A stretch of DNA of 63,885 nt, counting the filler, from Octopus bimaculoides (Eukaryota), in NCBI RefSeq assembly GCF_001194135.2. It is 7 parts of 7 records of this genome, joined end to end, with 100 filler letters (N's around TTAATTAATTAA, not from the genome) between each part and the next. Parts side by side here need not be neighbours in the genome. Positions count along the whole stretch, not along the records: positions 1 to 15,265 come from NC_069000.1; positions 15,366 to 27,235 come from NC_068998.1; positions 27,336 to 39,266 come from NC_068981.1; positions 39,367 to 48,621 come from NC_069004.1; positions 48,722 to 56,551 come from NC_068984.1; 2 more parts are not named here. One strand, written 5' to 3'. Below, piece by piece: positions 7,530 to 54,558 of the stretch (positions within the stretch are counted from its first letter, which is position 1; each line of letters starts with the position of its first letter). The position numbers were made by a program, and so were the translations under genes. Under the pieces are notes generated by a model. That model made no database searches, had not been told where the DNA came from, and saw only the letters and a list, made by a program, of their open reading frames with translations.

Positions 7530-7740
7530 GTCCTTTATTAATTTATATAGTTTTTTGTTAAATTATTTCATTGCACTCTTGCAATCTCTTCAGTAACTTG
7601 TCTCTCCACTTCCATTTATTTTGAATATATATTCAAAATATATATTCAAAATAAATGGAAGTGGAGAGACAAGTTACTGAAGAGATTGCAAGAGTGCAAT
7701 GAAATAATTTAACAAAAAACTATATAAATTAATAAAGGAC
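7530..7740. repeat. Perfect 104-bp-arm inverted repeat (3-nt loop) ending at an N-gap
   Basis: 7530-7633 is the exact reverse complement of 7637-7740. Confidence 0.95.
7673..7713 (+). ncRNA. Minimal type-I hammerhead ribozyme motif (mirror copy at 7557-7597, minus)
   Basis: GTTA-CTGAAGA-G-ATTGCA(AGAG)TGCAAT-GAAA-TA-ATT-TAAC: intact core, 4-bp helix I, 6-bp helix II, minimal helix III. Confidence 0.7.
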
Positions 7741-8212
7741 NNNNNNNNNNNNNNNNNNNNNNNNNNNNNNNNNNNNNNNNNNNNNNNNNNNNNNNNNNNN
7801 NNNNNNNNNNNNNNNNNNNNNNNNNNNNNNNNNNNNNNNNNNNNNNNNNNNNNNNNNNNNNNNNNNNNNNNNNNNNNNNNNNNNNNNNNNNNNNNNNNNN
7901 NNNNNNNNNNNNNNNNNNNNNNNNNNNNNNNNNNNNNNNNNNNNNNNNNNNNNNNNNNNNNNNNNNNNNNNNNNNNNNNNNNNNNNNNNNNNNNNNNNNN
8001 NNNNNNNNNNNNNNNNNNNNNNNNNNNNNNNNNNNNNNNNNNNNNNNNNNNNNNNNNNNNNNNNNNNNNNNNNNNNNNNNNNNNNNNNNNNNNNNNNNNN
8101 NNNNNNNNNNNNNNNNNNNNNNNNNNNNNNNNNNNNNNNNNNNNNNNNNNNNNNNNNNNNNNNNNNNNNNNNNNNNNNNNNNNNNNNNNNNNNNNNNNNN
8201 NNNNNNNNNNNN

Positions 8213-8570
8213 CATGGTTCTGGGTTCAGTCCCACTGCGTGGCACCTTTGGCAAGTGTCTTCTACTATAGCCTAGGGCCGACCAAAGCCTTGTGAGTGGA
8301 TTTGGTAGACGGAAACTGTCGTATATATGTATATATATATGTATGTGTGTATGTGTTTGTGTGTCTGTATTTGTTCCCCCCAACATCGCTTGACAACCGA
8401 TGCTGGTGTGTTTACGTCCCCATAACTTAGCGGTTCGGCAAAAGAAACTGATAGAATAAGTAGTAGGCTTACAAAGAATAAGTCCTGAGGTCGATGTGCT
8501 CGACTAAAGGTGGTGCTCCAGCATGGCCGCAGTCAAATGACTGAAACAAGTAAAAGAGTATAAAAGAGTA
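8213..8570 (+). mobile_element. SINE family B
   Basis: High similarity to the other family-B copies, including the tail GGCCGCAGTCAAATGACTGAAACAAGTAAAAGAG. Confidence 0.88.
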
Positions 8571-8591
8571 AATGAAATATTATTCCATGTG

Positions 8592-8990
8592 CATATTACA
8601 AAGATGGCAACAAAATGCGGGGGACAAGCTGGGTGGATTCTGAGATGATTCAGAACAAAGAAAAGATTTTTAAAAACCAAGACGCTTCGATTACTGCTCC
8701 CAATTATGGTTACCACAAAGTGTTAAACAAACGGCGGATCTTGGGTCAATCAGACGCTGTTATACCGGGAAGATTGTTCAACAGATAAGCAACTGGGAGA
8801 AGCTAAAAGAACCGATGATCTACTCCCTAGAACGAAAACATGAAAGGTTTGCAGTTACCTTTATAAATATGTAGATTAATCTTGGAAACTCTAACACCAA
8901 ACCTAGGGTCTGAAAGCTATACCAACTCCAAAACTGGACGACACTGCATGGTGAAAAAAGGTCTGCCTGATCCAGCTAGAGTAACACTCG
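8592..8990 (+). mobile_element. CR1/L2-group LINE, ORF2 C-terminal relic
   Basis: Frameshifted peptides HITKMATKCGGQAGWILR*FRT and NWEKLKEPMIYSLERKHERFAV; homologous to 25365-26175. Confidence 0.75.
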
Positions 8991-9129
8991 ATGCTTTAAC
9001 AGTTTAGGATTCAAAGGGCAGCAATTATTCAATATTTTACCTAAAAACCTAACATGTTTATGTTCACATTTACACCTCAAAGATGTAAATGCATCCATTC
9101 ATTCATCTTCTCCCTCCACTATGTCTGGG

Positions 9130-9760
9130 TGGAGTGCCGTCGGGTTACTGTCCTCAGGCACTTCTTCCAAGATGTCCCGTTGAAGCAACCGTCATTACAC
9201 TTTCCAGCTGAATTCCCAAACATGACCAACTGAGATTATGGATATTTTTTAATCATCATGTTCTGACACTACTGCTACATCTTCTACAGTCGCGGCTCGA
9301 AGAATCCATTTTGAGATTTTTTCCTGCGACATTCTAATCAGATGTCCGTAGTACTAGACCTGCGACCTCTCAGTGCAGAGAAGTAGTGGCTTCGCCTGGA
9401 GAAACTCCTTGATTTCCGAACTACGCACCCCGTCAAATAACATTACTCCAGAGATCTTTCAGAAGAATCCCATTTCGGCTGCTTGTATTCATGATCGAAA
9501 TCTTTCGAATATTATGCAATATTCCTGACCATATGTGAAGATAAGCACGAATACCGAACTGAAGATATAGAGTTTGGCGTCTTTAGAGCAACCTCTCCTA
9601 TTTTGAAGATCAAATGCGAGAAATGGCGCATTACCGTGCCAGCATATGCAATTCTAGTATACAATTCAACCTGCTGGTTCCCATCACATAAATGTAGATT
9701 TATTAAAAAAACACACATAGACATCCTTTTACCTGTGATTCCAGGTGAACTTACGTTACG
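9130..9760 (-). mobile_element. RTE-clade LINE (Rex3/Expander-like) 3' relic
   Basis: Minus-strand peptides IQAAEMGFF*KISGVMLFDGVRSSEIKEFLQAKPLLLCTERSQV*YYGHLIRM. Confidence 0.75.
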
Positions 9761-10063
9761 CTAAGAAATACAAATGACGACGGCGATATCCAAAACCATC
9801 CAAGGAAAGATCACCATAGAAATTAAATAAATAGAAAGTAAGACCAATGTCTGTGCTCAGGCATGACCACAGTCAATGACTAGAAAAGGAACAAAGAGTA
9901 AAGGTGTAAAAGAGTAGAGGGAATATTTTTGTTGGATTCGTTTACTGGTTTCTGTCGCTGAACTGTGGTCATGCTGCAGCATTGATCTTAATACTTTATA
10001 ATACATCATATCAACACTTGCGTTTCAACCAGGTCCTATATTTGTCGATATCATGTGTGTGTG

Positions 10064-10097
<34 letters not shown>

Positions 10098-10186
10098 CGC
10101 GTGTGTGTATATGTATATACATATATATATTGTGTATATGTGCGTGTCTGCGTATGAGTCTATACGTGTACGTGTGTGTGTCTATA

Positions 10187-11059
10187 CACTGGGTGGTCGG
10201 GCTAAATTTGATGACTTTTATGTCTCCTTTTCTCAGGATTAGCTTGATGTATTGGTGAACAGTTAACGGCGCTGAAGAGTACAACGATTAAAGTTGTAGT
10301 GGAGAAAAAGTTACCTGACATGGAGGACTGGAAGCCATCTGAATATTGGGAAAAAGTTACCTGTACGATGGTGATTCGCGCCGGCTATCAAAATGTTGGC
10401 CCGATGACTGCTGCTCAGTATTTTGTAAACATTGTAAACATTGTAAGAGCTATAGGACATGACATGGACACCATGAAAAGCAAATTCTCTCAAACCGTAA
10501 TGGTCTTTGGGTATGTTTCCAGTGAAGGTGACGTCATGCTGCTCCACGTTTTTGAACAGGGCCTTAGGCTCTATTCAGACGACTAATGTGAAGCTGCTGG
10601 AGATTGTGATCAATCCCAGGCTAGAGAGAGTTGCTGCTGGAAGGTCATATGTGTAGCAGCAGGATCGAGCTCCTTTCCGTACCTTTCTACGACTTCATTA
10701 GCCCCGATTTCTAGCCTCCTAATTCCCTCAATGTAAACCCATGCGCTACTATGTGTGAGGGGGAGCCGCGGTTGAGAAAGACACCGAGCATTCTACCAGC
10801 AACACCAAGGCCGAGCTGGTGGCCGAAATCAACGAAATGATCGATGTTCCTAGAGACACAGTGAGAAACGCATGCGCAAGGTTCCGGAGCTGTGTTCAGG
10901 CCATGACAGAAGCCGAAGGCCGCTACTCCGAGTAAACTGTTATCTCTCAACTATAATCTTGCTGATGTTTTGATTCTTTCAAATACTTTTATCTTTCGAT
11001 GAGACATTTTTCTTTCTTCTCTTTTTATACAAACTGTCGAATTTAGGCTGAACACACTG
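10187..11059 (+). mobile_element. Tc1/mariner DD37D (maT-like) internally deleted transposon
   Basis: Degenerate TIRs flanked by TA; KSKFSQTVMVFGYVSSEGDVMLLHVFEQGLRL and QQD/NPxxYYVW-type C-terminal segments. Confidence 0.8.
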
Positions 11060-11134
11060 TATAAGCATAACTTTAGTGAACGAAATTATTTCCGCATACT
11101 TTAGTTTTCTTCACATTACCTTTCTTCACATTAC

Positions 11135-11480
11135 GCGCAGGCGTGGTTAAGTTTACTTCCCAACTACATGGTTCTGGATTCAATCCCAATGCGTAACAAT
11201 ATGAGTAATATCTTCTACTACAGCCCCGGACCAATCAAAGCCCTGATTGAATTTGATTGATGGAAACTGAAAAAATAAAGTCGTACATGTGTGTGTGTGT
11301 CTGTGTTTTTGTTTGTCCCCCAGCACCACTCGACAACTAGTGTTGGTTTATTTACGACTCCGTGACCTAGCGGTTCGGCAAAAGAAAACCGATAGAATAG
11401 GAACCAGGCTTTAAAAATAAGAAGTACTAAGCTCTATTCGCTCGGCTAAAACCCTTCAAGGAACTGAAGCAAGTAAAAGA
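11135..11480 (+). mobile_element. SINE family B (diverged)
   Basis: Head GCGCAGGCGTGG..., body and tail similar to 59955-60350. Confidence 0.8.
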
Positions 11481-11546
11481 TAAGACAAGAAATCAGTGAA
11501 AAGTACCTCCCAACGAACCTTGATTAACAAGAACAACAACATCACG

Positions 11547-11587
<41 letters not shown>

Positions 11588-12644
11588 NNNNNNNNNNNNN
11601 NNNNNNNNNNNNNNNNNNNNNNNNNNNNNNNNNNNNNNNNNNNNNNNNNNNNNNNNNNNNNNNNNNNNNNNNNNNNNNNNNNNNNNNNNNNNNNNNNNNN
11701 NNNNNNNNNNNNNNNNNNNNNNNNNNNNNNNNNNNNNNNNNNNNNNNNNNNNNNNNNNNNNNNNNNNNNNNNNNNNNNNNNNNNNNNNNNNNNNNNNNNN
11801 NNNNNNNNNNNNNNNNNNNNNNNNNNNNNNNNNNNNNNNNNNNNNNNNNNNNNNNNNNNNNNNNNNNNNNNNNNNNNNNNNNNNNNNNNNNNNNNNNNNN
11901 NNNNNNNNNNNNNNNNNNNNNNNNNNNNNNNNNNNNNNNNNNNNNNNNNNNNNNNNNNNNNNNNNNNNNNNNNNNNNNNNNNNNNNNNNNNNNNNNNNNN
12001 NNNNNNNNNNNNNNNNNNNNNNNNNNNNNNNNNNNNNNNNNNNNNNNNNNNNNNNNNNNNNNNNNNNNNNNNNNNNNNNNNNNNNNNNNNNNNNNNNNNN
12101 NNNNNNNNNNNNNNNNNNNNNNNNNNNNNNNNNNNNNNNNNNNNNNNNNNNNNNNNNNNNNNNNNNNNNNNNNNNNNNNNNNNNNNNNNNNNNNNNNNNN
12201 NNNNNNNNNNNNNNNNNNNNNNNNNNNNNNNNNNNNNNNNNNNNNNNNNNNNNNNNNNNNNNNNNNNNNNNNNNNNNNNNNNNNNNNNNNNNNNNNNNNN
12301 NNNNNNNNNNNNNNNNNNNNNNNNNNNNNNNNNNNNNNNNNNNNNNNNNNNNNNNNNNNNNNNNNNNNNNNNNNNNNNNNNNNNNNNNNNNNNNNNNNNN
12401 NNNAAAACAAATACAATACTCATTTATTTTTATCAAAAACTTCATAAATTAAGAATAAAAGTATTATTATAGTCATGATAAATGTATTATTATGATTAAT
12501 ATCATAATAATACATCAAATATGAGGCTAACTAATTTAATGTACTAATAATTTTAATGAATTAAATATAACATTGATGTGATACATACTGTATACCTACT
12601 TTTGCACCACCCCTCACACACACACACACACACACACATACATT

Positions 12645-12676
<32 letters not shown>

Positions 12677-12679
12677 AAT

Positions 12680-12810
12680 ATATACGACGGGTTTCTTTCA
12701 GTTTACGTCTACCAAATCCACTCACAAGACTTGCCTAAGTTGCCACACAGTGGACTGAACCTCGAACTATGTGGTTGAGAAGCATATTTCTTACCTCAGA
12801 GCCACGCCTG
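12680..12810 (-). mobile_element. SINE family B head fragment (internal deletion)
   Basis: TTTCTTTCAGTTT.CGTCTACCAAATCCACTCACAAG...CCAC.CAGTGG.CTGAAC. Confidence 0.75.
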
Positions 12811-13785
12811 CATTTAGATGTGTGTTTGTGTGTGTGTGTGTGCGTGTGTGTGTGTGTAGGTAATGTAGAAATACTCATGTATACATACACTCATAATATA
12901 AACGTACAATCAGACGGATCAGCCGAAGGTTTTGTACATACACTCACACACTCATATATACCAAAGATTAAGAGAAAACTTTCAGCTGGTAGCAACTGCA
13001 CGGTAAATACCACCAGCCCAGAGATTAAGCGCAAATCTAGTATATGTTATATATTAAGTGCAAATCTAAATGTACTATACCTTATGAGATTCGTTAAAGA
13101 GCTACTCCAATGCTAAAACTAGTATAGGAGTAGCGACCCCCAGAATAAGTGAAAGAATCTACATAGTATCTACACTATATCAATATACCCAACTGAAACA
13201 GCAGATCTTTCAATGATATTGAAATAAAAGTTCTTTTCACACATCCAAAAGATGAAGCCTTACGATACATTGCAGAAGCTGAACGAATTTAGGAAATAGA
13301 TTTGGACCACACACACACACACACACACACACAATCATGATAAGTTGTTGGCAACAACAAAATCAAGCAAATAAATGAAATGAATACCATTTATACCAAA
13401 AGAGTCACACGACTTACCGTAGAAATCAGACATAAACATCATAACATACAATTAAAAACCAGTTGGAGAATGTAAACCTATCATGGTCGCAGAAGAAGTG
13501 GGATGAAGATTTCAAAGAATATAACCAAACAACAAGAAGTGAATCACCAAACAGTGAGTATGATATCGGCTTTAATACGACTCTGCAAGATGATTATAAA
13601 ATTGGATTCGACACACGGTCTCAGATCAATAATGTTTGAAAAACAAATTCAAAATTACATAATATGTCTGTGTTTGATACAGATGAACAGTGAACTTGAA
13701 GTAATGCAACGTGTATGTGTGTGCATGTATAACTGATGAGGTGTGAGTGAAATGATGAAGTCTAAGAGGGTATTTAGAGACACCG

Positions 13786-13824
<39 letters not shown>

Positions 13825-13924
13825 NNNNNNNNNNNNNNNNNNNNNNNNNNNNNNNNNNNNNNNNNNNNNNNNNNNNNNNNNNNNNNNNNNNNNNNNNNNN
13901 NNNNNNNNNNNNNNNNNNNNNNNN

Positions 13925-13958
<34 letters not shown>

Positions 13959-14540
13959 TGTATGAATACATGCATACACACACTCATACAGAGACCTTAC
14001 GATTATAGTACCATACTATTTCACTGTGCTCCTCATCGCCATCACAACCACGACGAACGTCGCCATCGTCGCGATCAGACCACCGCCACCATTACTAAAT
14101 AATCTCAACACTACTCGTGCAACAACAACAATAACTGCAGCTACAACACCAATGAGAACATCACCGCTACCACTTCATACAACTAAACAAACTATATTGC
14201 CTTGAGAGATCCAAAGAAAAACAACAGACTTTGCTGTGGTTCCCAAAGCTGGCATAAAAATCATTCCTTTTGATATGCTGTTGTAAGAAATGGCGAACGC
14301 AAATATGTCTGTGTTTATATACAATTTTACACACACAGACTTATAAGCGTTCCAAGCATACTTAGATATTTACATATCAAATTACCTGTACCCATATTAT
14401 ATGTATATATGAAGCACACAAGCACACACATATTTACATCCACACACATACACGCGCACACACATCGTACACTATCTAGTGATCTATTTATATCTCCCTA
14501 GATATCTGTGCAGTTATGTATCCACTTCTCTTTCACATTC

Positions 14541-14595
<55 letters not shown>

Positions 14596-14695
14596 TATGT
14601 ATGTATGTATCTATATATATATATTAACACACATACATTTATTCACACACACATATACATATGTATATACATGTATGTATCTATTTTCACCCCTC

Positions 14696-14729
<34 letters not shown>

Positions 14730-14894
14730 ATATATAAATCCATACATATACATATATATACATACATGCATACATGCATACATAATACATACATTTATAT
14801 ATATATATATATATAGTTGAAACTTACTTGCAAATGGACACGTGCGTTCGATGATATAATAATACAAATGATATATAAGCATACGCATGTATAC

Positions 14895-15200
14895 ATACAT
14901 ATATGTACATACCTACATCTACATGTATATATAGATGCATATCTGGGTACAGAACGTTAGAAAAATGAACGGGGACGTAAAAACAAAACAGACAATGTTT
15001 ACAGACAACAAAACGAACACATAGGAAAACAAACACACTTATGGAATTATTCCTTCATCAGCTACCTCTATTCCTAAACTAGGCGTTTCGAAGATAAGGC
15101 AGGCCGCACTCTTAGAATAGTTTCTTCCTGAGTAGTGGATTAACCCACTAAACAGAGGATTCCAAGGTAGCAAACACAAACCAAGACAAGAAAAATTAGA
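14895..15200. repeat. Interspersed repeat shared with 53440-53760, carrying a CUGANGA-hairpin motif on the minus strand
   Basis: Shared ATATATGTACATACCTACATCTA.ATGTATA.ATA.ATGCATAT.TGGGTACAG and CCTTC.TCAG segments. Confidence 0.7.
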
Positions 15201-15265
15201 CAGTGAAAACAACATTAAAAAGCTGTAGGGCCAAACGCGATGGGATATTGAATGCTGTGATATGA

Positions 15266-16757: not shown

Positions 16758-16795
16758 TGTTTTATGTTTCGAGCCTAAGCTCTTCAACAGAAAGG
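16758..16795 (-). ncRNA. Degenerate minimal hammerhead (family shared with 53891-53929 and 54302-54337)
   Basis: Minus strand CCTTT-CTGTTGA-A-GAGC(TTAG)GCTC-GAAAC-ATA-AAAC. Confidence 0.6.
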
Positions 16796-17321: not shown

Positions 17322-17366
17322 AACCTTAATCGATTTTTGAATCGTATTGGATTCTCATCAGAGGTT
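17322..17366 (-). ncRNA. Minimal type-I hammerhead, single core change (G12 to A)
   Basis: Minus strand AACCT-CTGATGA-GAATC(CAATAC)GATTC-AAAA-ATCGAT-TA-AGGTT; 5-bp helices I and II, palindromic helix III AATCGATT. Confidence 0.75.
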
Positions 17367-17712: not shown

Positions 17713-17784
<72 letters not shown>

Positions 17785-18553: not shown

Positions 18554-18622
<69 letters not shown>

Positions 18623-19036: not shown

Positions 19037-19087
<51 letters not shown>

Positions 19088-22978: not shown

Positions 22979-23523
22979 GCTACTCGACCTGAAAAAAATT
23001 CTAACTGGGCCCCACCTGCAAGGTCATGTGTTGTTTATTTTGGTATGAGGTCACCACGTCGTGCACATATGTTTGTGATGTATATGCTTGCGGCACCTTG
23101 ATCAGACGGGTAGTCATGATGGATATATTGGAATTTATTTATTTGTTCTCCAGTCTCACTTTCGTGGCATAACGCTAGATAAAGAAACAGAAACAAAAGA
23201 ATCACAATAAGTACTTAAGAATCAACGAATTAAACAGTTGAACACGTACACATGAAAGGATTTATGAAAGAATATTACAGAAGCATTAGATAAGTACTTA
23301 AAACTGAGCTAAATGAAAAACAGCCATCAGTATTTTAGCTGTAACAGTAATAAGTAATAATTATAAAATTCTCAGCTAAACGCTTAATCGAACTAGTAAG
23401 ACTCGAAATATAAAGTAAAATAATGAGTGAATAGAGAATAATCTAAAATGTGACATACAAATAATATCAATGATAACAAATACACGGAAACTGGCGCCTT
23501 ACACAACTAGAAGACTATTATCG

Positions 23524-23558
23524 CTGACGATGTGAAATAACGCAGAAACGCACGCGTC
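23524..23558 (+). ncRNA. Hammerhead-like core lacking a clear helix I
   Basis: CTGACGA-TGT(GAAATAAC)GCA-GAA-ACGC(AC)GCGT-C; core and helices II/III present, helix I not found. Confidence 0.45.
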
Positions 23559-23879
23559 TCACAGCCAGTGACGTCATTAATAACTCAATGGTGCGTTTTC
23601 ACATATTGTGTGTGTTTTATCTCGAGACAATTTCTGCATTGCATGACTTGCTGTGTCTGAGTGTACACGTTAAATATGATTGTATAAGCCCATGTTTTTG
23701 CTGTAGAACAGCAAAAATATTAAGAAAATGATAATAGGAAACTAATACAAGCATCTACAAAATATGAACAAAACGAAACTTCTTTGTTGTGTTTTCAGAG
23801 AAAATATAAAACAGCGGTTGAAGTGACAGGGACTTAGGAGAAGAAAAATAAAATAACGACAGAAATTGGAAAATAGCAA

Positions 23880-29639: not shown

Positions 29640-29870
29640 AGCATTATAAGGGATTCGTAACAAACTATTAGGGGTCATCCTATGCAACTGCGAAAGGAGA
29701 AACATGCAGCATCCCTAAAGTAAGATTAGCTGAACATCGAAAAACTGTGATATGATGGGACATTGAAAAGTTCTATAGCCGATCAAGTAAGGTTGAGGAA
29801 ATAAATGAGAAAATTAGGAAATGTAAGGAAGCAGTACTTATGGTAGGATATACCCACCTGAAATAGCGGT
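29640..29870 (+). mobile_element. Penelope-like GIY-YIG relic
   Basis: GETCSIPKVRLAEHRKTVI*WDIEK, homologous to 34200-34280. Confidence 0.6.
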
Positions 29871-32289: not shown

Positions 32290-32706
32290 GTTACAAAGGC
32301 AGAAGTCTCCGCACCGAACGAGCAATAGTAGTGGCACTCCGTCAGTTACGACAATGACGGTTCCAGTTGATCTGATCAACTGAAACAGCCTGCTCGTGAA
32401 ATTAACGTGCAAGTGGCTGAGCACTCCACAGGCAGGCGTATAAATAACGTAGTTCTATGGGTGACTCAGCGTGACAAACTGTGACAAGACTGGTCTTTTG
32501 AAATACAGATACAACAGAAACAGAAAGAAAGAGTAAAAGCTTTGGTGAAAGAATACAGCAGGTTTCGCCACCATAACCTGCCGGAGCCGCGTGGAGATGT
32601 ATGTGTTTTCGCTCAATAAACACTCATAACGCCCGGTCGGGGAATCGAAACCGCGAACCTATGACCGCAAGTCCGCTGCCCTAACCACTGGGCCATTGCA
32701 CCTCCA
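32290..32706 (-). mobile_element. tRNA-headed SINE family C
   Basis: Minus-strand head TGGAGGTGCAATGGCCCAGTGGTTAGGGCAGCGGAC...GGTTTCGATTCCC. Confidence 0.88.
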
Positions 32707-34019
32707 CGAATGATTAGTAGTATTAGAACGAAAGATATACTAGAATACGACATTTCATACAATACGTTAATATATTTACTTTTCTCGCTTCATCATATAG
32801 CAATCACCAAAGGTAACCTAGTTCTCCAATCATTCATTTAACCGAGGTCTTACATCTAGTATAATTGCTTTTGCCAAAGCGTCGGCAATGCGAATATATT
32901 TCATATTCCCACTAAACTTATATATCATTAAATTACATAAAGGTTCAGTCCCATTCTATTAGAATACAAATGAGTTTGTCATTGCGAGTAGGATAACATT
33001 TCCTAAATAGCGACGTACAGATCCCTCGTCCTCTATTTGTCTCTCATCCTCAATGAGATATTAACTCAAAATCCTCTAATATATGCATGGAAACCTATGC
33101 AAATTCTTCAAATATATAATTAGACAACATGTAAGTAATGCATCAGCTTCCCTGAAATGATAGAGACCGCTGTCAGTTACTTCACGCTCTACTCCTACGA
33201 AATAAGGCACGTTCAATAATGTACGCTACTTGAAAAATAAATCTATATTATCCGAATTTCTTGGCATAATATTAAAACTCAAGCCCAAATACTACAACTG
33301 CCATTGTTTAAGGAGTGTATTCAAAACTCGTCTGCCCAAAGCAAAACTTCACATGCAGAGATGTTAGGTTATTTAACTTCATGGTGTTTTTAAAGTGAAA
33401 TGTACTTGCTCCCTACACCAGAAATGTAATTTATATAGAGGCAAAAATCAAACTACATTCATAATGTCATTATGTTGTCAATCTACGCTTAACCATGTTT
33501 AATGAAATTAAAATGTTGGGATTTAAATGTAATACTAAAAATATTGACACCTGAAGAAAGTGTTAACGAAATAGGTGAACAAATGGGTATACACGCACAC
33601 AAATACCTTCCAGGCACACGTACAGGCACATACCCGTCTAAAAGTATCTGTGTGTGAATTTGTGAATGTTATATAAAATAATCGGACATATCCAAGTATC
33701 ATCTATCTATGAAGTATTTTCCATAATTCGTTTGAATTCCTTTATCTTTCGCTGATAATAACTATGTCGCTAACACCCTTAATTCGTGGAAGTTTCGAGA
33801 TATTTACAATGCTATATGTTAATAACAGCGTGTTGCTTTTATATATAACGAAGACCACACTATATCAGTTTTGTACTCCTACATCTAACAGATGCTGGAT
33901 GTCTATGCTGCATCTTAAAAATAGCAACTCGAGGTCATGGTTCCTTTCATTGATTATGTTATATATGTTGTATCCGTGTCGATTTGTCCTTTGTATTTTA
34001 TTACAATTAAACCATCCAC

Positions 34020-34500
34020 AGTCATAAGTCCTAAATTCAGCATCTCCGAAAAGATACAAAAGATATGCGGCCCATATGACATCAGGACTTATTAAAGAGT
34101 AATACAACACTTCGCAAATATCTCCTTCGGGTAAAACCACCAATAGAAGAGAATATGACCCAAAACTGCGTGTATTCCATCCCCTGTAGCTGTGGTAGGT
34201 TATACAATGGCAAAACATACCGCCCCCTCAAAATAGGAGTAGAGGAACATCGCAAAGCTGTGACACGATGAGATATTGATAAATCGGGTATAGCTGATCA
34301 TGTAAGGAAAAATGGAGACCACCTCCGCTTACGGAGTGACGTTAAGATAAATAGACAGAGAACACCACTGGAAAATACGAAAACTAAAAGAAACAGCACA
34401 TATGCTAGGACACAACATCCTCCTAAGCAGACCGAGTGCAGATATGAATAGTATATGGGAACATGTATTAAGAACGGATAGGAATTATTAGATTTATAAG
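34020..34500 (+). mobile_element. Penelope-like element, GIY-YIG endonuclease 3' end (disrupted)
   Basis: ISEKIQKICGPYDIR...NTTLRKYLLRVKPPIEENMTQNCVYSIPCSCGRLYNGKTYRPLKIGVEEHRKAV...HWKIRKLKETAHM. Confidence 0.85.
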
Positions 34501-34533
34501 CCCTAAAATTCACCTCATAATTGCCTACGAACA

Positions 34534-34745
34534 TATGGCGTAATGGTTAATATTGCGGGCTACTAACCCTAATATTCCAAGTTCGATTCCCGATAATGAC
34601 CTGAATAATAATAATAATAATGATAATAATAACATGGGAAAATAACCCAGGTTCGAAATTTCTCCAAGACACCTGATAAAGTCTGGAGGGTATTTCAGCC
34701 GAAACAAGGTGAGGACAAATATCCGTCAAATGTAAATACTGTAAA
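34534..34745 (+). mobile_element. tRNA-like Pol III head plus (AAT)n plus decayed hammerhead, directly after the Penelope ORF
   Basis: A-box TGGCGTAATGG, B-box GTTCGATTCC; CTGATAA-A-GTCTGG(AGGGTATT)TCAGCC-GAAAC at 34673-34705. Confidence 0.55.
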
Positions 34746-34764
34746 TAGAGCATTCATTTAGTTT

Positions 34765-35070
34765 TTACATGTTTTGGTCATTGGACTACGGCCATGCTAG
34801 GGCACTGCCTTGCAGGGTTTTGTAGAAATAATCGACCCCATAACTTATTTCTCTTAAGTCTGATTCTTGGTTTATCGTCTCTGGAGACGCAAACCAATTA
34901 AAACCATTTGTCAAACTTCTTCCAGTTTCTCTTTGCTAATTTCCCTCACAAGACATTGGTCATCCCTGAGCTATGATAGAAAACTGCTGCCCAATGTGCC
35001 ACGCAACGGAACTGAACCCGGGAGTATGGAATTCAATAGAAACGTCTTACCACACAGTCACGACTATGCC
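34765..35070 (-). mobile_element. SINE family B (diverged, deleted)
   Basis: TTTTACATGTTT.GGTCATTGGACT.CGGCCATGCT.G.GCAC.GCC and CTGCCCAA.GTGCCACGCA..GG.ACTGAACCC. Confidence 0.72.
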
Positions 35071-41356: not shown

Positions 41357-41783
41357 CATATATACAATTAATAACGAAGAGGAGAGTGGAGATTTATTAA
41401 CATCCAAAATTCTTTATTAAAATGTTTTCTACAGCATGTATAACTCTGACCAACATATGTTTTGGCTGCAGCGACAACACATTGCTCTATATGCAATTAT
41501 GTATTCTAGTCGCTGCAGTTTCATCAAAAGGTCCATCACTCACGACGTTTTCAAAATGAGCTGATCCAAACAAGCGTCCTGCGTTGGTATTCAGCTGTAG
41601 GTGATAGCGTTACTTTTTAAATCCAATAACATATGGTTCACGATAGGGTAAAACAATTATGAAGGCACTGTGTGTTTGTAGGATACTGTTGATGTGTAAG
41701 TACCAAATCTAATTTAAACCGTTGACCGGACTCGGGGCTGGTTCTAGGTGTGGCGTTAGTATAAAAAAAACAAAACAAATGGG

Positions 41784-41884
41784 GTTTAAAATTTATGACA
41801 GTTGTTTCGGCAGAACTTTATATTGATGTATTCATAGATTACATCATAGCATACAATCCACCATCTTCAGATAAAATTTTAAAG
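41784..41884 (-). ncRNA. Type-I hammerhead ribozyme, intact core, extended helix II
   Basis: Minus: TTTAAAATTTTAT-CTGAAGA-T-GGTGGA...TCTGCC-GAAAC(AACT)GTC-ATAAATTTTAAA; 12-bp helix I with one bulge; predicted GUC cleavage between 41797 and 41796. Confidence 0.85.
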
Positions 41885-42574: not shown

Positions 42575-42634
<60 letters not shown>

Positions 42635-42754: not shown

Positions 42755-42796
<42 letters not shown>

Positions 42797-44053: not shown

Positions 44054-44960
44054 TTGGGTCATCCCACAAATAATGCAGTTTTTTAAATTGCATGAATTAT
44101 AAGTCGGAGGGGGACGGAATGAACTATCTACATCAACTTGCTATAAAAGCAGGTAGTAATTTTACCTTGGACTAATTCTTAGTGCAAGATTTGAAGAGTG
44201 CAGTTCGATTTTAACAGTTATTTTTTTCAAAGCTATAATGGAAGTGACAAAAGACCATATTCGGTATATTTTGCTTTATGAGTTCAATAAAGACAACAAC
44301 GCAACGAAAAGTGCGAGGAATATTAATGCAGTAGATGGGGATCGGACAACAAGCGCAAACCAGTGTCAACGGTGGTTCCAGAAATTCCGAGCCGGAAACT
44401 ACAGCCGAGAAAATGAGCCTCGTTCTAGAAGATATGTAAAGCTCAACGAGGTCGTCCTACAAACCCTGGGGGAACAAAATCATTTCGTAACTGTTGAAGA
44501 ACTAGCAGAGAAGCTTGGATTTAAGCATTCAACTAGGCATTCAAGTCAGCGCTAGAAAAAAAAAATGACCATGTTTGATTTCAAGACGAAAGGTGTTCTT
44601 CCTTTCGGATGATTAATACTCGGTGACATACAGCGAGGATGACATTCCAAAGGCTGGAGCATTTTGAATGGGAAACGATGTCCCACCAAGACATTGCCCC
44701 ATCTGATTACCTTTTATTCCGCAGTCTTCGGAATCATTCGGACGGGGAAAATATGAATTCTGTAGACGACGTCAGAACAGTAGTGCAGGAGTATTTTTCT
44801 CCACAGACAAGTAAATTTTGGAAGAGAAGCCTTGAAAATTTATCAGACAGAGCATTGTAGAAAATGAAGGAGAGTATATTTTAGATTTCAAAAAGAACTT
44901 TGTATATATTAATTTTGAAAAATATAAGAAGTATAAAATTTTTTACTTCATTTAATGTTT
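44054..44960 (+). mobile_element. mariner (DD34D) element, internally deleted, right TIR lost in gap
   Basis: TA|TTGGGTCATCCC left TIR; HTH MEVTKDHIRYILLYEF...QCQRWFQKFRAGNYS; C-terminal WETMSH..DIAPSDYLLFRSLRNH. Confidence 0.9.
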
Positions 44961-47002: not shown

Positions 47003-47391
47003 TATGTGTGTTGGCACTCCGTCGCTTACGACGTCGAGGGTTCCAGTTGATCCGATCAACGAAACAGCCTGCTCGTGAGATTAACGTGCAAGTGGCTAAG
47101 CACTCCACAGACACATGTACCCTTAACGTAGTTCTCGGGGATATTCAGCGTGACACAGAGTGTGACAAGGCTGACCCTTTGAATTACAGGTACAACAGAA
47201 ACAGGAAGTAAGAGTTAGAGAAAGTTGTGGTGATAGAGTACAACAGGGTTTACCACCATACCCTGCTGGAGCCTCGTGGAGCTTTAGGTGTTTTCGCTCA
47301 ATAAACACTCACAACGCCCGGTTTGGGAATCGAAACTGCGATCCTATGACCGCGAGTCCGCTGCCCTAACCACTGGGCCATTGCGCCTCCA
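47003..47391 (-). mobile_element. tRNA(Arg-like)-headed SINE family C, full length
   Basis: Head TGGAGGCGCAATGGCCCAGTGGTTAGGGCAGCGGACTCGCGGTC...TTTCGATTCCC on minus; body matches 32290-32706. Confidence 0.9.
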
Positions 47392-47483
47392 ACTACCAAG
47401 TATAATAATGATTTATAGGTCAATGTTATGTCCTGTTTGTTGTGTTAGCAGTGCAATTCGACCACTTTAAGTTTTCTCTGTAA

Positions 47484-47880
47484 CAAGGGTCACCAAACTA
47501 CGGGCCACGAGGTCAGTTCATCCGGCCCGCTACCGCACTGTACTTTTGGTGCAAGTACCTGCAATGAGAGTTCATTTGCCTCTGGTTTGGCATCAGAATG
47601 TCAAACAACTTAGGAACAGCTTAGAAACAACTTATGTCTGTGAGCAAACATTTTCAAAAATGAAGTATATAAAGTCAGCACATCAAACGAGGTTGACTGA
47701 TGAACATTTGAAAGCAATTCTGTTGGCTGGATGCAGCAATTCCAAAGCAAATATTGATGATATCTTCAAAGTTAAGCACCAGTTTCACAAATCTCACCAA
47801 CCATTTTTGCTGCTTAGTTTGTGAGATTCGGATATGTGTGCTCTGTCTGTGATGTAACCAGCTTACTGCTAATGAAGCCT
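47484..47880 (+). mobile_element. hAT (Buster/Charlie/SPIN-like) deletion derivative
   Basis: Left end CAAGGGTCACCAAACTACGG...ATCCGGCCCGC; hATC motif TYVCEQTFSKMKYIKSAHQTRLTDEHL. Confidence 0.82.
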
Positions 47881-49257
47881 TCTTTGATAACTTTTTGGTA
47901 AATAAATTCGTTGGTTGTCTTTATTTTTTGTGTATTAAACAAAATGGTTATGCGTATGGAACACGAGGACACGAATGGAATAAAGAGGACACGTATGGAA
48001 CATTGAAGAAGGGTTCGAAAATCCAGTACCCAAGATACACTTTCAGTTTCATACCTATTATTATTGAAGCAGCATGGTAAGTACCAAACCGCTTGGAGTA
48101 AAGTAGGATTCTTGAGGAAAGAAAGCAATTCCTTGATTTAGACGTTACATATAATTCTCGTATCTGGAACAATAAAAGTGTGCAAGATATTCTTTAGTTT
48201 TAAAGAATGATAAACTAAAAGAGAGAGAAAAAAAGACGCTTTCTTTCACAACTTTGCCACAAAGCAGGTTAAAGTTAAGTCTTAAATTTAAGAGAGGAAA
48301 ATAAAATAAACAAGCACACGCGCGCGCGCATACACACTTATGCGTGCGCGCCCACATACACTTATTATACGTATATGCACACACATATATACATACATAT
48401 TTGTATACACACACACACACATATATATATATATGCACACACATACATATATATTTACATATACACATATATACATGCATAAATACAAATATATATAGCT
48501 ATATGTATACACACACATATATGTATGCATGTATGTATGTATGTATGTATGTATATATAGATACACACACACATACATGTATGTATATCTATATGCATAC
48601 ACACACATATATACATGTATANNNNNNNNNNNNNNNNNNNNNNNNNNNNNNNNNNNNNNNNNNNNTTAATTAATTAANNNNNNNNNNNNNNNNNNNNNNN
48701 NNNNNNNNNNNNNNNNNNNNNGTACTATATTATCACACTGTATTTCTCACTTCACTACTCCTTTAAACTGGATTAACACATCAGGCTGGATTAAGAGGAG
48801 GATTATAGTAAACACTACACCTCTGAGAATGTTTTACTGGGTTAAGTATTATCAGAATATTGATCTGCTTAATTCTAGTGTTCCATTCTTAACTCTGATC
48901 GGATTTTAGGTTTTTTTTAAAACTCTGCCTTTTTTTTTTCTCTTTAGCTTTATTGCAACCGTATATGCATTTACTGCACTCGTAATGCATGTTGCTACCT
49001 TTTCCCCATGATTCTGATTCTCAAATATCTGGGCCTGCATTGTAGCTGCTATATACAAACATTTAAGACTACGTCTAAAAGAGCCAATGTAGGACCCTCT
49101 GTGTGTCACACCCTATCAAAAATAGCTGCCAAATCTCCTCAAATCACAACTCACTGTTTTAAAAAACAACATGTTTGACAATGTAGTCTTGAGTAGACAG
49201 TACCTTTCTCTGCAGAGTCAAAACCCTAACTATGAAGGAGAAACAGCAAGATTGCCC

Positions 49258-49985
49258 TTAACCCTTTCATTACCAACCTGGCTGAAACCACCTCTGGCTC
49301 TGTAGTACAAATGTCTTGTTTTCATAAGTTTTGAATTAAGATCTTCCACCAAACCTTAGTCACAATTTATGTTCCTAACACTAGCTGAATGATAAATAAG
49401 TTATTTTACTAAATTCTTTGTTATATTTAAAATTAATTGAAAGAAACATAGAGCATCTCAAAATAAATAAGGTTACAAAAGGGTTAAAATATATAAGTGA
49501 GAAACAATTCTTAACCTTTTCAATACCAACCCGGCTGAAACTGCCTCTGAGTACAAATGTGTTGTTTTCATAAGTTTAGAATTAAAATCTTCCACTAAAC
49601 CTTAGTCACAATTTATGTTCCTAACACTAGCTGAATGATAACTAAGTTATTTGACTAAATTCTTTGTTATATTTAAAGTAATTGAAAGAAACAGAGAGCA
49701 TCTCAAAATAAATACGGTAACAAAAGGGTTAAAATATATATAATAGAGAAACAATTCTTAACCCTTTCGATACCAACCCGGCTGAAACCAGCTCTGGCTC
49801 TGAGTACAAATGTCTTGTTTTCATAAGTTTTGAATTAAGATCTTCCACCAAACCTTAGTCACAATTTATGTTCTTAACACTAGCTGAATGATAACTAAGT
49901 TATTTGACTAAATTCTTTGTTATATTTAAAGTAACTGAAAGAAACAGAGAGCATCTCAACAGAAATACAGCAATGAAAGGGTTAG
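49258..49985. mobile_element. Three tandem piggyBac-like MITEs (49262-49483, 49515-49728, 49762-49981)
   Basis: Each runs TTAA|CC(C/T)TT...AAGGG|TTAA (last flank TTAG), is ~220 bp and similar to the others; separated by a repeated ~24-bp spacer. Confidence 0.88.
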
Positions 49986-50789
49986 TGGTAGATACACTGG
50001 CTTTCCAGGGCTCAAAATATCTCATAGCATGAGCACAAATCATTGAGAAGATTTATAGATACATGATCAGTGTCATCCAGGTCATATTGAATGCTATATT
50101 CTGCAGAGCTCTGCATCCTAATCGAAGACGAAGCCCACTCAACAGTATTTTGAGAGTACTGGCAGTGACATAAAACATTAAACTGAAGACTGACCAAATC
50201 AAATAAGGGGACAGATTCCTGTGTAGCATGGTGAGATGTATCTCAGTTGTAGCCACTTGGAAAAACAGGAAAAGGTAGGATGGTCCCGGTTGGAATGTCT
50301 GATCCTATACATCTACTGCTTGATTAGGACTGACCTGGGGTTAAACAAACAACCTCCACCACATATATATATATATATATGAAGGCCATCCCAAAACACA
50401 ACCTCTTTTACCTTTACTATTATTACCTGTACAATGGCCTCTGTTCCTTTAAACTACCAGTTTTAGCTACCCTCTTTCCACCCAGGCCACCTAACCTGAT
50501 TCCTGCCTACCACCCCCTCTCTCTCTCTTTCCTGTCACTTTCTACTCAGCCCCTCTACCCCAGTGACAATAAATATACAAATTCATATTTATATCTGGCA
50601 ACCATTAACTTACAACTTTTCAACAGCAATGTTAACCTGGTCAATCTCACAATGCTACACATCCAGCATTGATCATGGCCACAACTTCTTCCTCCAGACC
50701 AAAGGTTCTCAAGGAGGCATTAGGCTATAGGGGGCAGTGAGGTAACATTATGAAAACACTGAATTTTATCTATAGTAGTAATTACATTG

Positions 50790-51302
50790 GAAATATTGCA
50801 TTTCTAAATCTCTCCGAGAGAGAGTTATACAGGAGCAGCAGGATAAAGTGATGGTTTGCTGCCAACTTAATGTGGCAGTCCCAGGAAAGGGAAGAATGCT
50901 ACTGCTATTTAACCCCAGGAAACACCATTTCTAGTTGGCAATGTGACACAAGTGTTCTATGTTCCTAAGTTTTCAAACAGGGTAGATAAGCACCTCCACC
51001 CAACAATGCCAGCATCCAGAGACTAGTTTCAGGGTTGTTGCTCTTCATCGGTTTAGAGTAGTTTGGCCTTGCTAGCTGTCAGTGCTAAATTGCTGTTGAA
51101 AACTTATAGAATTTCAAGTGAAATAAATTCACTGATCTACAAAATTAGAAATATTGCATTTCTAAATCTCTCAGAGAGAGAATTATAGAGGAGCAGCACG
51201 ATAAAGTGATGGTTTGTTGCCAACTTAACGTGGCAGTCTCAGGAAAGGGAAGACTGCTACTGCTATTTAGCCAAGAAACACCGTTTCTAGTTGCCTACGT
51301 GA
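50790..51302 (+). repeat. ~155-bp direct repeats (50790-50946, 51148-51302), period 358 nt
   Basis: GAAATATTGCATTTCTAAATCTCTC...CC.TTTCTAGTTG..A.GTGA present twice. Confidence 0.9.
51015..51057 (-). ncRNA. Degenerate minimal hammerhead between the direct repeats
   Basis: Minus: TCTAAA-CCGATGA-AGAG(CAACAA)CCCT-GAAAC(TA)GTC-TCTGGA; U4 to C plus one mismatch each in helices I and II. Confidence 0.6.
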
Positions 51303-51655
51303 TTATATTATATACAATAAAACAAGTAATGGTTATTAAAATAAAATGAGATCTCATCAAACACAGGAAAGTCATTAACTTGCAATGTTTAAAATAAATT
51401 TACAACTTCTGTCTTTACTAATTGTTTATCATTTCACTGTTAATAACTTATAAAATCCATTTTATAGTAAAATTTTTAGATTATCATCCATGTTTTATTA
51501 GTTTTGTCGTGATTTCTCACTCACCAATTGGGTGGGTGTTATGCATAATAACTACTTAAAAGGATGTGGGGGAGGGTGTTACAAAAAAAACAAATGATGT
51601 TTATGAACAACAGCTCCAGACCTATCAAATAAGATAAAAAATATTTAGCCTCAAT

Positions 51656-51812
51656 GGGTGCAGGCATGGCTGTTTGCTAAGAAACTTGCTTCCCAACCAC
51701 ATGGTTCTGGGCTCAGTTCCACCTTAGGCAATTGTCTTCTACAATAGTCTTGGACTGACTAAAGCTCTGTGAGTAGATTTGGTAGATGGAAACTGAAAGA
51801 AGCCTACTGTAT
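51656..51812 (+). mobile_element. SINE family B head
   Basis: GGTGCAGGCATGGCTGT...TGCTTCCCAACCACATGGTTCTGGG.TCAG...GATGGAAACTGAAAGAAGCC. Confidence 0.8.
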
Positions 51813-51817
51813 GTCAA

Positions 51818-51995
51818 CATCATCATCGTTTAACATCCGTTTTCCATTTTGGCATGGGTTGGACGGTTTGACTGAGGTCTAGGGAGACCAGCAGCTGCAC
51901 CAAGCCCCAATCTGATCTGGCAACGTTTCTACAGCTGGATGCCCTTCCAAACACCAACCACTCCAAGAGTGTAGTGGGTGCTTTTTTCATGCCAC
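51818..51995 (-). mobile_element. LINE 3' UTR/tail with (GAT)n end (RTE-type, tentative)
   Basis: CATCATCATCGTTTAAC start followed by TTTCTACAGCTGGATGCCCTTCC, recognised from memory as a retroposon tail. Confidence 0.55.
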
Positions 51996-52420
51996 ATAAA
52001 AATAATTGTAAAAAGAATATACGTGGGATCTAAATGGAAAAAAAGTGAGACAAGAAGAGAACTAGTAAGAATTTTTTTTCAATACTAAAATTAAGAGTGG
52101 TTAAGAGTGTCTAACAATTCCAATTAATAAATCATTGAAGTTCAATCTGTTTTTAAAAAATATAAATTGTACATAATACAGTAAGAGGAAAATTACTTTC
52201 TACAGTCGTTTTCAGAGGAGCAGCCGGAACGCGGAAGAAGCATGTTCATGTCTGCATGGACCAGGACAAGCAGGGGAGAGTGGAGGAAGGCAAGCTATCG
52301 GTTGATGATGAGGGTGGACGCGATCAGGCACTGGTCTTCCACCAGGCACCCAGCAGCCTATGCCAACTGCTGTTGAGTGCAGAGCAGCGCAGAGGAGACC
52401 AAACTCAGCTGACCAGCTCG

Positions 52421-52505
52421 TACCCCTTATAGTTGTCTGGTTGCCCTTTTAGTTGTCTGGTACCCCTTATAGTTGTCTGGTCACCCCTTATAGTTGTCTG
52501 GTCAC
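52421..52505 (+). repeat. 20-21 bp minisatellite x4 (TACCCCTTATAGTTGTCTGG)
   Basis: Four adjacent near-identical units. Confidence 0.92.
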
Positions 52506-52659
52506 GACACTTGCCTCATATATACCTAAGAGATAGCAACATTGATTATACTTTATCCTGGTCCATAATTACAGAGCCCCCTACCTTGTAGTGCTAGTTT
52601 GAATAGATGCAGGTTATGTATAAGGGAATCATATAGTTCAAACACATTAAATTCTCTGA

Positions 52660-53265
52660 TGGGGCATGGCTGTGTGGTTAGGAAGCTTGCTTCCCAGCTA
52701 CATGGTTTCGGGTTCAGTCCAACCGCATGGCACCTTGGGCAAGTGTCTTCTGCTATAGCCCCGAGCCAACTGAAGCTTTGTGATTGAATTTGGTAGGTGG
52801 AAGTTACTGCCGTGTGTGTATATGTCTGTGTATGTGCTTGTGCCTCTCTGCTAGAGAGAGAGAGAGGGATATACACACACACATACATACATACAGGGGC
52901 ATAGCTAGAGTAAATGGCACCCAGGGCAAGCATTAAAATTGTGCCCCCTCCCCAACCAAAAAGCAGAACATGCATTTTCTAAGCTCAAGTAATAACACCT
53001 ATTCTGTTTACACCCCCATGTATATACATACATATATGTATGTGTGTATACATATATGTGTGTATCTGTTTATCCCCCACCACTACTTGACAACCGGTGA
53101 TGGTGTGTTTACGTCCCTTTAACTTAGAAAGTTCAGCAAAAGGGACCAATAGAATAAATACTAGGCGTAAGAAATAAATCCTGGGGTAGATTTGTTCAAC
53201 TAAATCCCGTCGAGGCGGTGCTCCAGCATGACCGCAGTCAAATGACTGAAACAAATTGAAAAAAA
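52660..53265 (+). mobile_element. SINE family B interrupted in its internal microsatellite by a MITE-like fragment (~52894-53019)
   Basis: Head 52660-52830 and tail 53040-53265; the insert starts CAGGGGCATAGCTAGAGT...GCACCCAGGG, resembling one end of the 608-772 MITE. Confidence 0.75.
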
Positions 53266-53396
53266 AAAAAATAGAAGATAACATCTTGCTGATGATTAGT
53301 AGCTGAAAACTCCTTTTGTATAAAGATGAAAAAAAATTATGCCAGGCACCACCTATTTGCATGAGAGTACATGTAATCTTTCATAGTTTAGGAGGG

Positions 53397-53444
<48 letters not shown>

Positions 53445-53890
53445 CATATATGTACATACCTACATCTATATGTATACATACATGCATATATGGGTACAGG
53501 ACATCAAAAACACATTAAACACAATGAGAAACGAAAACAAAAAAACGAAAACAGAAAACAAACTTTTTTCAAACAACGAAAAAACAGAGAAACGAGACAT
53601 GCAACATAAAGAGTATACCCCTTCGTCAGTTGTCCCTGTTCCACCTACTCCGCAACAGTCCTTCCCGCAAAGCAAATTAAATAAAATTTGGAATTTTTTG
53701 CAGAGGGTGAAAGTGTTAGTGAGAACAGGACAGTGAAACCAAACGGTGAGGGCTGTTGAGCCAAGACGACAGAAAAATTATTATGAACGCTAGGTTCATA
53801 ATATATACATATATACATATAGTTGAAATTTACAGAAAAGCAAAAGACAAAGACAGGTGTATAAACAACAAGCAGGCGGGAGGTGAGAAA

Positions 53891-53929
53891 GTCTTTCAGG
53901 TGTCGAGCCTAAGCTCTTCAACAGAAAGG
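53891..53929 (-). ncRNA. Dead minimal hammerhead (family of 16758-16795)
   Basis: CCTTT-CTGTTGA-A-GAGC(TTAG)GCTC-GACAC-CTG-AAAG. Confidence 0.55.
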
Positions 53930-54301
53930 CACACGAGGAAATAAACAGAGAGAGAATAAAAAAACTTTTGGTGTTAGTGGTCAATCATGGCAATATATAT
54001 ATATTACAGAGATGTACTTGCATGGCAAGTGACTTGATCTGAGATCGTGTGCTGAAAGAAAAACAAGAGATGCAGCACAAAATTTTGACAGAAAGGAATG
54101 AGAGGAAATAAACAGAGAGAGAAAGAAAAACAACATGTAGAGTTCAGTGGTCCAACATGGTGAATAAATAAATATATATATATATATCCATACAAACACA
54201 CACGTATAGTCAATTCAAATAAATGAATAACACAAACGAAAAAACAAATTTGAGGACGTTCACAAGAAATGTATTTGCTTGAGGCTTGGTGAAGGGAGAG
54301 A

Positions 54302-54337
54302 GTTTGATATTTTGAGCATAGCTCTTCATCAGAAAGG
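54302..54337 (-). ncRNA. Decayed minimal hammerhead (same family, CTGATGA intact)
   Basis: CCTTT-CTGATGA-A-GAGC(TAT)GCTC-AAAA-TA-TC-AAAC; the changes fit CpG decay of GCTCGAAACGTC. Confidence 0.6.
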
Positions 54338-54407
54338 AGAATGGAAAAAGTCCAAACATGGAAAAGAAACCACCAATGGCCCATGTGTAGTTACATTGCT
54401 CAAGTCT

Positions 54408-54439
<32 letters not shown>

Positions 54440-54514
54440 CATATGAGGGAATAGACAAACGAAAGACATTTATTGGAAGTTACATGTTTTGATGAAAATA
54501 GTTTGATTCAGACG

Positions 54515-54558
54515 CCTTGGTACTCTGAGTTTCAAGTGTGTGGCTAGTCTTCAGCCAA
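54515..54558 (-). ncRNA. Minimal type-I hammerhead, intact core, weak helix II
   Basis: TTGG-CTGAAGA-CTAG(CCACACA)CTT-GAA-ACTC(A)GAGT-A-CCAA; 4-bp helices I and III, GUA site. Confidence 0.68.

Follow-up and report, generated by a model that had tools for sequence, protein, structure and literature searches.

Broken minimal type I hammerhead motifs, one of them in a Penelope-like 3' end, in a 63,885-nt window of Octopus bimaculoides DNA

A stretch of Octopus bimaculoides DNA of 63,885 nt (assembly GCF_001194135.2; seven parts of seven records joined with filler), here called the window, carries a scattered set of broken hammerhead ribozyme motifs. We read them as minimal type I hammerheads of the kind found in Penelope retroelements, with a palindromic helix III: one lies in the 3' end of a Penelope-like element, and the others likely stem from other Penelope-like families and their non-autonomous offshoots. 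To this reading as a whole we assign a probability of roughly 0.8. The evidence consists of the motifs themselves, their excess over chance, the palindromy of helix III and, for one family, a link to a GIY-YIG endonuclease together with a high copy number. An original prediction, made from the sequence alone, had listed ten motifs, and all of them were recovered in place and on the strands assigned to them.

The window holds 56,057 called bases and 7,828 N, is microsatellite-dense, and has a GC content of 36.5% and a CpG observed/expected ratio of 0.71. It was scanned with a log-odds descriptor of the type I hammerhead comprising the core, helices I and II, an optional unpaired base and a short helix III; sites are named below by scan position and strand (for example, 7677+ or 41870-), and the mirror pair 7677+/7593- is counted once. 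Dinucleotide shuffles in local blocks of 200 nt and 1000 nt (100 per block size) and the reversed window served as controls. Eleven sites reached at least 16 bits in the 56 kb of non-N sequence, nine at least 18 and six at least 22, compared with means of 1.61, 0.65 and 0.09 (maxima 6, 3 and 1) in the 200-nt-block shuffles, 1.22, 0.33 and 0.02 in the 1000-nt-block shuffles and no site at any of these thresholds in the reversed window. The comparison with shuffled DNA on which the original prediction had staked its claim therefore comes out in its favour within the window (9 vs. 0.3-0.65 at 18 bits).

In a less circular test, palindromy was dropped from the score and 120 shuffles were scanned at a threshold of 16 bits. 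Ten sites reached it, compared with 1.6 expected, and the inner positions of helix III, through which two molecules could dimerise, were self-complementary in 17/24 cases vs. 130/450 (29%) in shuffles (p ~3e-5), which bears out the palindromic helix III that had been claimed for these minimal hammerheads. On the strength of this result and of the excess over shuffles, the motif set is real and of palindromic design.

A set made up largely of chance matches in AT-rich, repeat-rich DNA is thus refuted for the set as a whole and is the least probable of the explanations considered. It could appeal to the ~9 matches that shuffles give at 12 bits and the 1-2 at 16 bits, to monomer folds that are mostly no more stable than those of shuffles, and to Rfam, which named no hammerhead among the 150 of 265 window matches listed or in three small stretches. 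Against it stand the counts at 18 bits and at 22 bits (6 vs. <0.1), the independent palindromy and, for the Penelope family described below, reads that restore the arm missing at 34705. As Rfam names no motif here, standard annotation would undercount such motifs; a pattern scan of metagenome contigs gave 0 matches. Among the weaker members, one or two could be chance matches, and 53924- and 34673+ were accepted on homology because their scores fall in the chance range. Four further candidates, 7270-, 31534- (15.6 bits), 53629- and 33551+, scored in or near that range, had no second support and were dropped.

The elements of the type I core (CUGANGA, GAAA and UH) occur in order, with a perfect core at 7677/7593, 1106, 23524, 41870 and 54554 and one or two core lesions in each remaining copy. 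Helices I and II flank the core above chance, with the exceptions of 23524 (helix I) and of the window copy 34673. The claim that topology and core are kept across families was too strong: the core is perfect in some copies, but most are damaged, and a strict scan (zero core mismatch, contiguous helices) matched the 7677/7593 pair alone. Similarly, the "many" core lesions attributed to CpG transitions amount to ~5 of ~14, about a third, with ancestral states reconstructed from symmetry. The ten motifs fall into eight groups without a between-group blastn match at E 1e-4, in line with the at least six families proposed, blastn being weak on short decayed motifs. Five relics had been missed (1106-, 532-, 55448-, a mirror copy near 55479+ and 41527-), and the extended set comprises about 11 groups. 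The minus-strand excess of 7:3 had been considered too small to interpret, and so it is (p 0.34); in the extended set the ratio is 10:2 (p 0.04), or 8:2 (p 0.11) once neighbouring paralogues are merged.

The pair 7677+ (7673-7713, +) and 7593- (7557-7597, -) scores 27.9 bits on each strand and has a perfect core, a helix I of 4 bp, a helix II of 6 bp and U at the cleavage position; RNAfold of 7677+ yields helices I and II. Its two members are arms of a palindrome at 7530-7740 (211 nt, 98.6% perfect) that adjoins an N gap and is either a recent inverted insertion or an assembly artefact. Among the other copies with a perfect core, 1106- (1070-1109, -; 23.8 bits) has a 10-nt near-palindrome and is a paralogue of the decayed 532- (493-535, -; 16.1 bits), both being carried by a repeat at 360-586 and 937-1154 with 77% identity; the 3' strand of helix II is shortened in 1106- and retained in 532-, so that the lesions of the two paralogues complement each other. 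At 23524+ (23521-23561, +; 22.3 bits) the core is accompanied by helix II and a 10-nt near-palindrome, and helix I is reduced to one of three pairs, a G-U pair. The motif 41870- (41784-41884, -; 23.1 bits) combines the perfect core with the G10.1-C11.1 pair, C17 and a long helix II; its 8-nt palindrome has one mismatch and its minimum free energy (MFE) fold contains helix I (10 bp) and helix II, which makes it, as judged from this predicted fold and its core, the best candidate for activity in the set. Lastly, 54554- (54515-54558, -; 27.4 bits) has a 9-nt odd palindrome and a mismatch in helix II, and its MFE fold is not hammerhead-shaped.

In the remaining copies the core itself is damaged. 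The motif 17361- (17322-17366, -; 27.1 bits) has G12 changed to A, together with a perfect 8-nt palindrome and helices I and II of 5 bp each, whereas 51051- (51015-51057, -; 18.1 bits) has C at core position 4 and an ACTAGT palindrome. The G10.1-C11.1 pair is present in 17361 and the three-copy family as well as in 41870, and absent from 7677 and 54554. Two sets of copies with a long helix II were found among the missed relics. Of these, 41527- (41448-41533, -; 13.5 bits) has a long branched helix II and a score that alone lies within chance, and its fold contains helices I and II with a z of -4.3 (0/200 shuffles). The other is an old head-to-head inverted pair at 55321-55606, whose arms are 72% identical and each carry a decayed long-helix-II hammerhead, one on the minus strand (55448-, 55373-55451; 19.2 bits) and one on the plus strand (~55476-55554); again, the lesions of the arms are complementary.

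Three decayed copies on the minus strand form one family: 16790- (16758-16795; 16.5 bits), with a broken palindrome, 53924- (53891-53929; 14.6 bits), which is 74% identical to the former over 182 nt, and 54332- (54302-54337; 19.0 bits), with CUGAUGA intact and G12 changed to A. The first two share U at core position 6 (within 16784-16790 and 53918-53924) and an identical helix II, and the third has A at that position. In a phage ribozyme, activity was low after an A6C change; as U6 and helix II are common to two of the three copies here, a subfamily whose core is weak may have spread. When frames spanning this family served as queries, protein searches gave no match.

The Penelope link was established for the family of 34673+. 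At 34003-34482 (+) the window contains the decayed, 5'-truncated 3' end of a Penelope-like open reading frame (ORF), consisting of a linker and, at the C terminus, a GIY-YIG endonuclease, and interrupted by one stop and frameshifts. It matches P0004, a protein of 449 residues that has RVT_1 and an endonuclease at its C terminus, with a tblastn E of 3e-46, and was matched by 129/160 relatives, compared with a best E of only 0.03 in the reversed window; the best named match is an Octopus sinensis protein with 74% identity, and one relative is labelled as a GIY-YIG endonuclease by its source. Pfam does not score the fragment. The order of reverse transcriptase (RT) followed by GIY-YIG expected of an endonuclease-bearing (EN+) Penelope is therefore seen here in its 3' part only, RVT_1 lying upstream in P0004. 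The hammerhead (34666-34705, +; 10.6 bits) was assigned by family homology and lies ~190 nt behind the ORF end on the same strand, as expected of a ribozyme in the terminal repeat. In the window copy, A replaces G8, and a deletion of ~18 nt has taken out helix III as well as the 3' arm of helix I; the missing arm is present in other copies.

This was apparent from reads and contigs mapped onto 33850-34900, namely two RNA runs of the organism in which the sequence was best represented and the contig sets of two organisms. The loose ends of 1,818 and 1,308 RNA reads and of 215 and 222 contigs restore the ACGT palindrome and the helix I arm deleted here, and most reads lack the stop and one frameshift of the 34003-34482 copy; we infer that the hammerhead core is intact in the wider family. 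In the two organisms, summed contig depth, which is no copy number, was 41-43 in the flanks; within the element (~34040 to 34747) most bins of the endonuclease reached 1e5-1e6, the ribozyme 1.8-2.1e6 and the final bin 3.4-4.1e6. The ratio of ribozyme to flank is ~45,000 raw, or ~1,400 if up to 31-fold overlap inflation from short contigs is allowed for, by our own reasoning. At 34747, 262 and 298 contigs pass from the element into flanks of mixed sequence. The 34666-34705 family is therefore of high copy number in both organisms. Separately, 317 RNA reads of run X23 have one common upstream flank at 34181 (agreement 0.99), which is a single expressed locus elsewhere carrying a truncated copy of this Penelope family.

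Between the ORF end and the ribozyme, in the 3' untranslated part of the element, a pair resembling the A and B boxes of tRNA genes (34536-34589, +) is followed by (AAT)n to 34632. It is the only such pair in the window, compared with 0.01 per shuffle (a post hoc count), and it received no tRNA call from ARAGORN, nor from Rfam among the 150 listed matches and the three stretches mentioned above. From its sequence it is likely the relic of an RNA polymerase III (Pol III) promoter. Family reads cover it, contigs link it to the ORF end, and the depth across it (1.9-3.1e5) is not above that of the endonuclease, that is, there is no step; it therefore belongs to the element and not to a separate short interspersed element (SINE). 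An independent tRNA-headed SINE at 34530-34747, with its own 5' end and separate amplification, was considered and is not supported, as no depth step occurs at its head and contigs run from the ORF into it. When the literature was searched for Penelope terminal repeats with a tRNA-like part, a plant review was the only paper listed.

Several results weigh against the Penelope-type reading. The descriptor of the scored scan was composed once the motifs had been seen, and the Rfam result given above names none of them. An unpaired base between A9 and helix II was found in 7/10 sites vs. 96/192 in shuffles, with no clear enrichment. A double-hammerhead dimer was the cofold minimum for 17361 only (-19.3 kcal/mol; one of 12 folded), in decayed copies and under a nearest-neighbour model without tertiary terms, and this sole copy with a favoured predicted dimer has lost G12. 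The depth gradient along the Penelope element is weak evidence of the order of copying, because it is also set by the closeness of a copy to its family and by contig overlap. Moreover, the original prediction had associated such hammerheads with Penelope in general, and this holds for one family, 34666-34705; neither the 160 Penelope proteins, all near one clade, nor two further protein searches linked any other motif to Penelope, so that of about eleven groups one is tied to a Penelope protein. A weak, older GIY-YIG-like remnant at 29687-29860 (+) (E ~1e-3, 10/160 queries) is followed by transposase-like sequence, and no hammerhead was scored behind it. Pfam, run on 237 of the 289 ORFs left by a complexity filter from an initial 444, found no RT or GIY-YIG at its cut-off. 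At 23151-23330 (+), some 200 nt upstream of the 23524 motif, the frames look like the final residues of a Penelope endonuclease, and neither the 160-protein search nor a separate protein search gave database support for this possible tail (23151-23309).

Solo copies are expected to be without RT or GIY-YIG sequence. The two head-to-head inverted pairs and the 1.45-unit tandem described below match insertion forms described for Penelope and for retrozymes, head-to-head inverted pairs being among those described for Penelope insertions, and the readable repeat ends sit roughly 50-150 nt downstream of the motif.

RNA from the Penelope family adds to the contrary points, as its reads (7,044 and 4,914 in the two runs) are about equally divided between both orientations, in libraries that may be unstranded, and no pile-up of their ends was seen at 34666-34705, fragmented RNA-seq being a poor test of cleavage. 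Such a pattern is consistent with passive inclusion in host transcripts. It also bears on whether a good part of the motifs could be kept by the host as RNA switches, for instance by cutting intronic or 3' untranslated RNA near the homeobox gene at 2011-4550. That gene, the presence of family sequence in RNA and the perfect core in four unmirrored sites and the mirrored pair would be in keeping with such a function; yet lesions in the core or a helix are present in most copies, the sites of decay differ between paralogues, and the reads run in both directions without defined ends, so we regard host use as very improbable. The phrase "ribozyme population" in the original prediction overstates the case, given that most copies are predicted to be dead and that the RNA reads of the one family examined show no cleavage ends.

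A closer competitor is that most motifs are non-autonomous hammerhead repeats, either retrozymes without long terminal repeats (non-LTR) or Pol III SINEs of the schistosome type, spread via small circular or Pol III RNAs. The 51051- hammerhead sits in a 1.45-unit tandem at 50786-51302 (-) with 161-nt direct repeats (89% by blastn) and a period of ~358, within the size range of animal retrozymes; the insertion is a candidate retrozyme-like arrangement. Neighbouring paralogues (532/1106 and 53924/54332), the A/B box upstream of the 34673 ribozyme and the schistosome hammerhead SINEs, apparently Pol III transcripts (PMC6765202), also point this way. However, the 50786-51302 insertion has 1.45 units and one damaged hammerhead, no tandem with two intact hammerheads occurs in the window, and the A/B box shows no depth step and is connected to the ORF end by contigs. 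This explanation is therefore unlikely and, because animal retrozymes have been argued to be Penelope derivatives, it is more a sub-case of the Penelope-type reading than an alternative to it.

If Penelope-type origin is extended to all families, the motifs might have arisen as follows. A live element would carry the ribozyme in its terminal repeat, and, judging from the literature, two ribozymes of a tandem transcript would pair via the helix III palindrome and cut. Reverse transcription would begin shortly downstream of the ribozyme and mostly end early, so that the ribozyme would nearly always be copied and the ORF seldom; lying in the first stretch copied, solo hammerheads should then far outnumber ORFs, with which the depth gradient agrees. 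Without promoter, partner or selection, such solo copies would fill the genome and decay neutrally. Most Penelope insertions are reported to be 5'-truncated with a single terminal repeat, and in an element of Anolis copying into DNA begins at an internal position of the RNA, with the ribozyme and the start of the ORF overlapping (PMC11167929). The cleavage activity measured for such minimal motifs was low (PMC4209133), and the role of the ribozyme in Penelope elements is described as still open. Further sources consulted were 10.1101/2021.04.23.441226, PMC6962438, PMC3088659, PMC8967140, PMC10886601 and PMC13282606.

At 18 bits, nine sites in 56 kb correspond to 161 per Mb (95% interval 73-305), some of the copies being neighbouring paralogues. 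Extrapolation to the 2.8-Gb genome from this one window, picked for its motifs, would give 2-8 x 10^5 relics. Published counts with strict descriptors are ~9,000 for Xenopus tropicalis, 4,000 for coelacanth (PMC4209133) and as many as 120,000 retrozymes for the axolotl, with its genome of 28 Gb; in giant squid, 235 Rfam hammerhead matches are reported. The like-for-like strict count here is one event, or 18 per Mb (interval about 0-99), and the excess over published densities is therefore not proved. A very large genome-wide total is nevertheless plausible, since one family is high-copy and Octopus vulgaris is reported to have 30 recently active Penelope families, besides an older Penelope expansion. 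A bolder proposal, which we advance tentatively and consider rather doubtful, is that octopus genomes contain several hundred thousand relics from dozens of Penelope families, at least 10 times denser than any count for an animal found in print. Among them would be a family with a tRNA-type Pol III promoter captured just upstream of its ribozyme, and a sub-family whose spread took place in spite of a damaged catalytic core. If true, this would offer a natural series for testing the need of Penelope for its ribozyme and the origin of Pol III hammerhead SINEs; many parallel families with datable decay in one genome would also test whether amplifying masters keep an active core.

Other features of the window were recorded along the way. 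The homeodomain gene, which resembles Bsx, has two exons by Pfam (2011-2325 and 4212-4550, +), and 1.9 kb upstream of it there is a decayed duplicate of part of the homeobox exon (166-270 vs. 2106-2209, 92% identical). A 253-nt unit is repeated 2.9 times in tandem at 49257-49984 (90% identical); it has short inverted ends, contains no hammerhead and is probably a repeat resembling miniature inverted-repeat transposable elements. SINE-like repeats of two or three kinds, in many copies and without hammerheads, occur at 6693-6957, 8213-8580, 57846-58058, 59941-60363 and elsewhere. DNA-transposon remains include an 84% identical pair (32332-32706 vs. 47012-47391), a piece of a mariner helix-turn-helix/transposase at 44160-44552 (Pfam E 9e-19) and a weak hAT dimerisation match at 47471-47821; long interspersed element (LINE) and hAT fragments were also read by eye.

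Both the hammerheads of Penelope elements and the expansion of Penelope in octopus are already known. No paper joining octopus to hammerheads was found in the literature searched (main texts, with few subscription papers), and the word "ribozyme" is absent from two cephalopod repeat papers; octopus sequences could be present in the supplementary alignments of PMC4209133 and Lunse et al., which would bear on novelty. The closest known system is the minimal hammerhead of metazoan Penelope elements (Cervera and de la Pena 2014, PMC4209133), with which the motifs described here share the type I topology, the short helix I, the palindromic helix III, many unrelated families, mostly solo copies, perhaps an unpaired base that often precedes helix II and, in one family, placement behind an RT/GIY-YIG ORF. 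That work differs in reporting totals of ~2,000-9,000 per genome with a strict descriptor and in not covering this host, and the present set differs in its three or four motifs with a helix II of 50-60 nt and in the A/B box before the ribozyme of one family.

The Anolis Poseidon element PAc (PMC11167929) is likewise similar in its C-terminal GIY-YIG endonuclease, its hammerhead in the terminal repeat and the lack of RNA-seq ends at the cut site, and for PAc cleavage was not needed for insertion in vitro; it is intact and assayed, whereas the element described here is a decayed 3' end. Animal non-LTR retrozymes (PMC7229834; bioRxiv 10.64898/2026.07.22.740005) have a type I hammerhead in a unit of 150-450 nt, a form to which 50786-51302 may belong; a tandem of two intact ribozymes does not occur in the window. 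Finally, the schistosome hammerhead SINEs Sm-alpha and Sj-alpha (reviewed in PMC6765202) have the same order of a Pol III-type promoter followed by a hammerhead, whereas the boxes found here lie inside a Penelope 3' end beside its ORF and, judged by depth, are not separately amplified.

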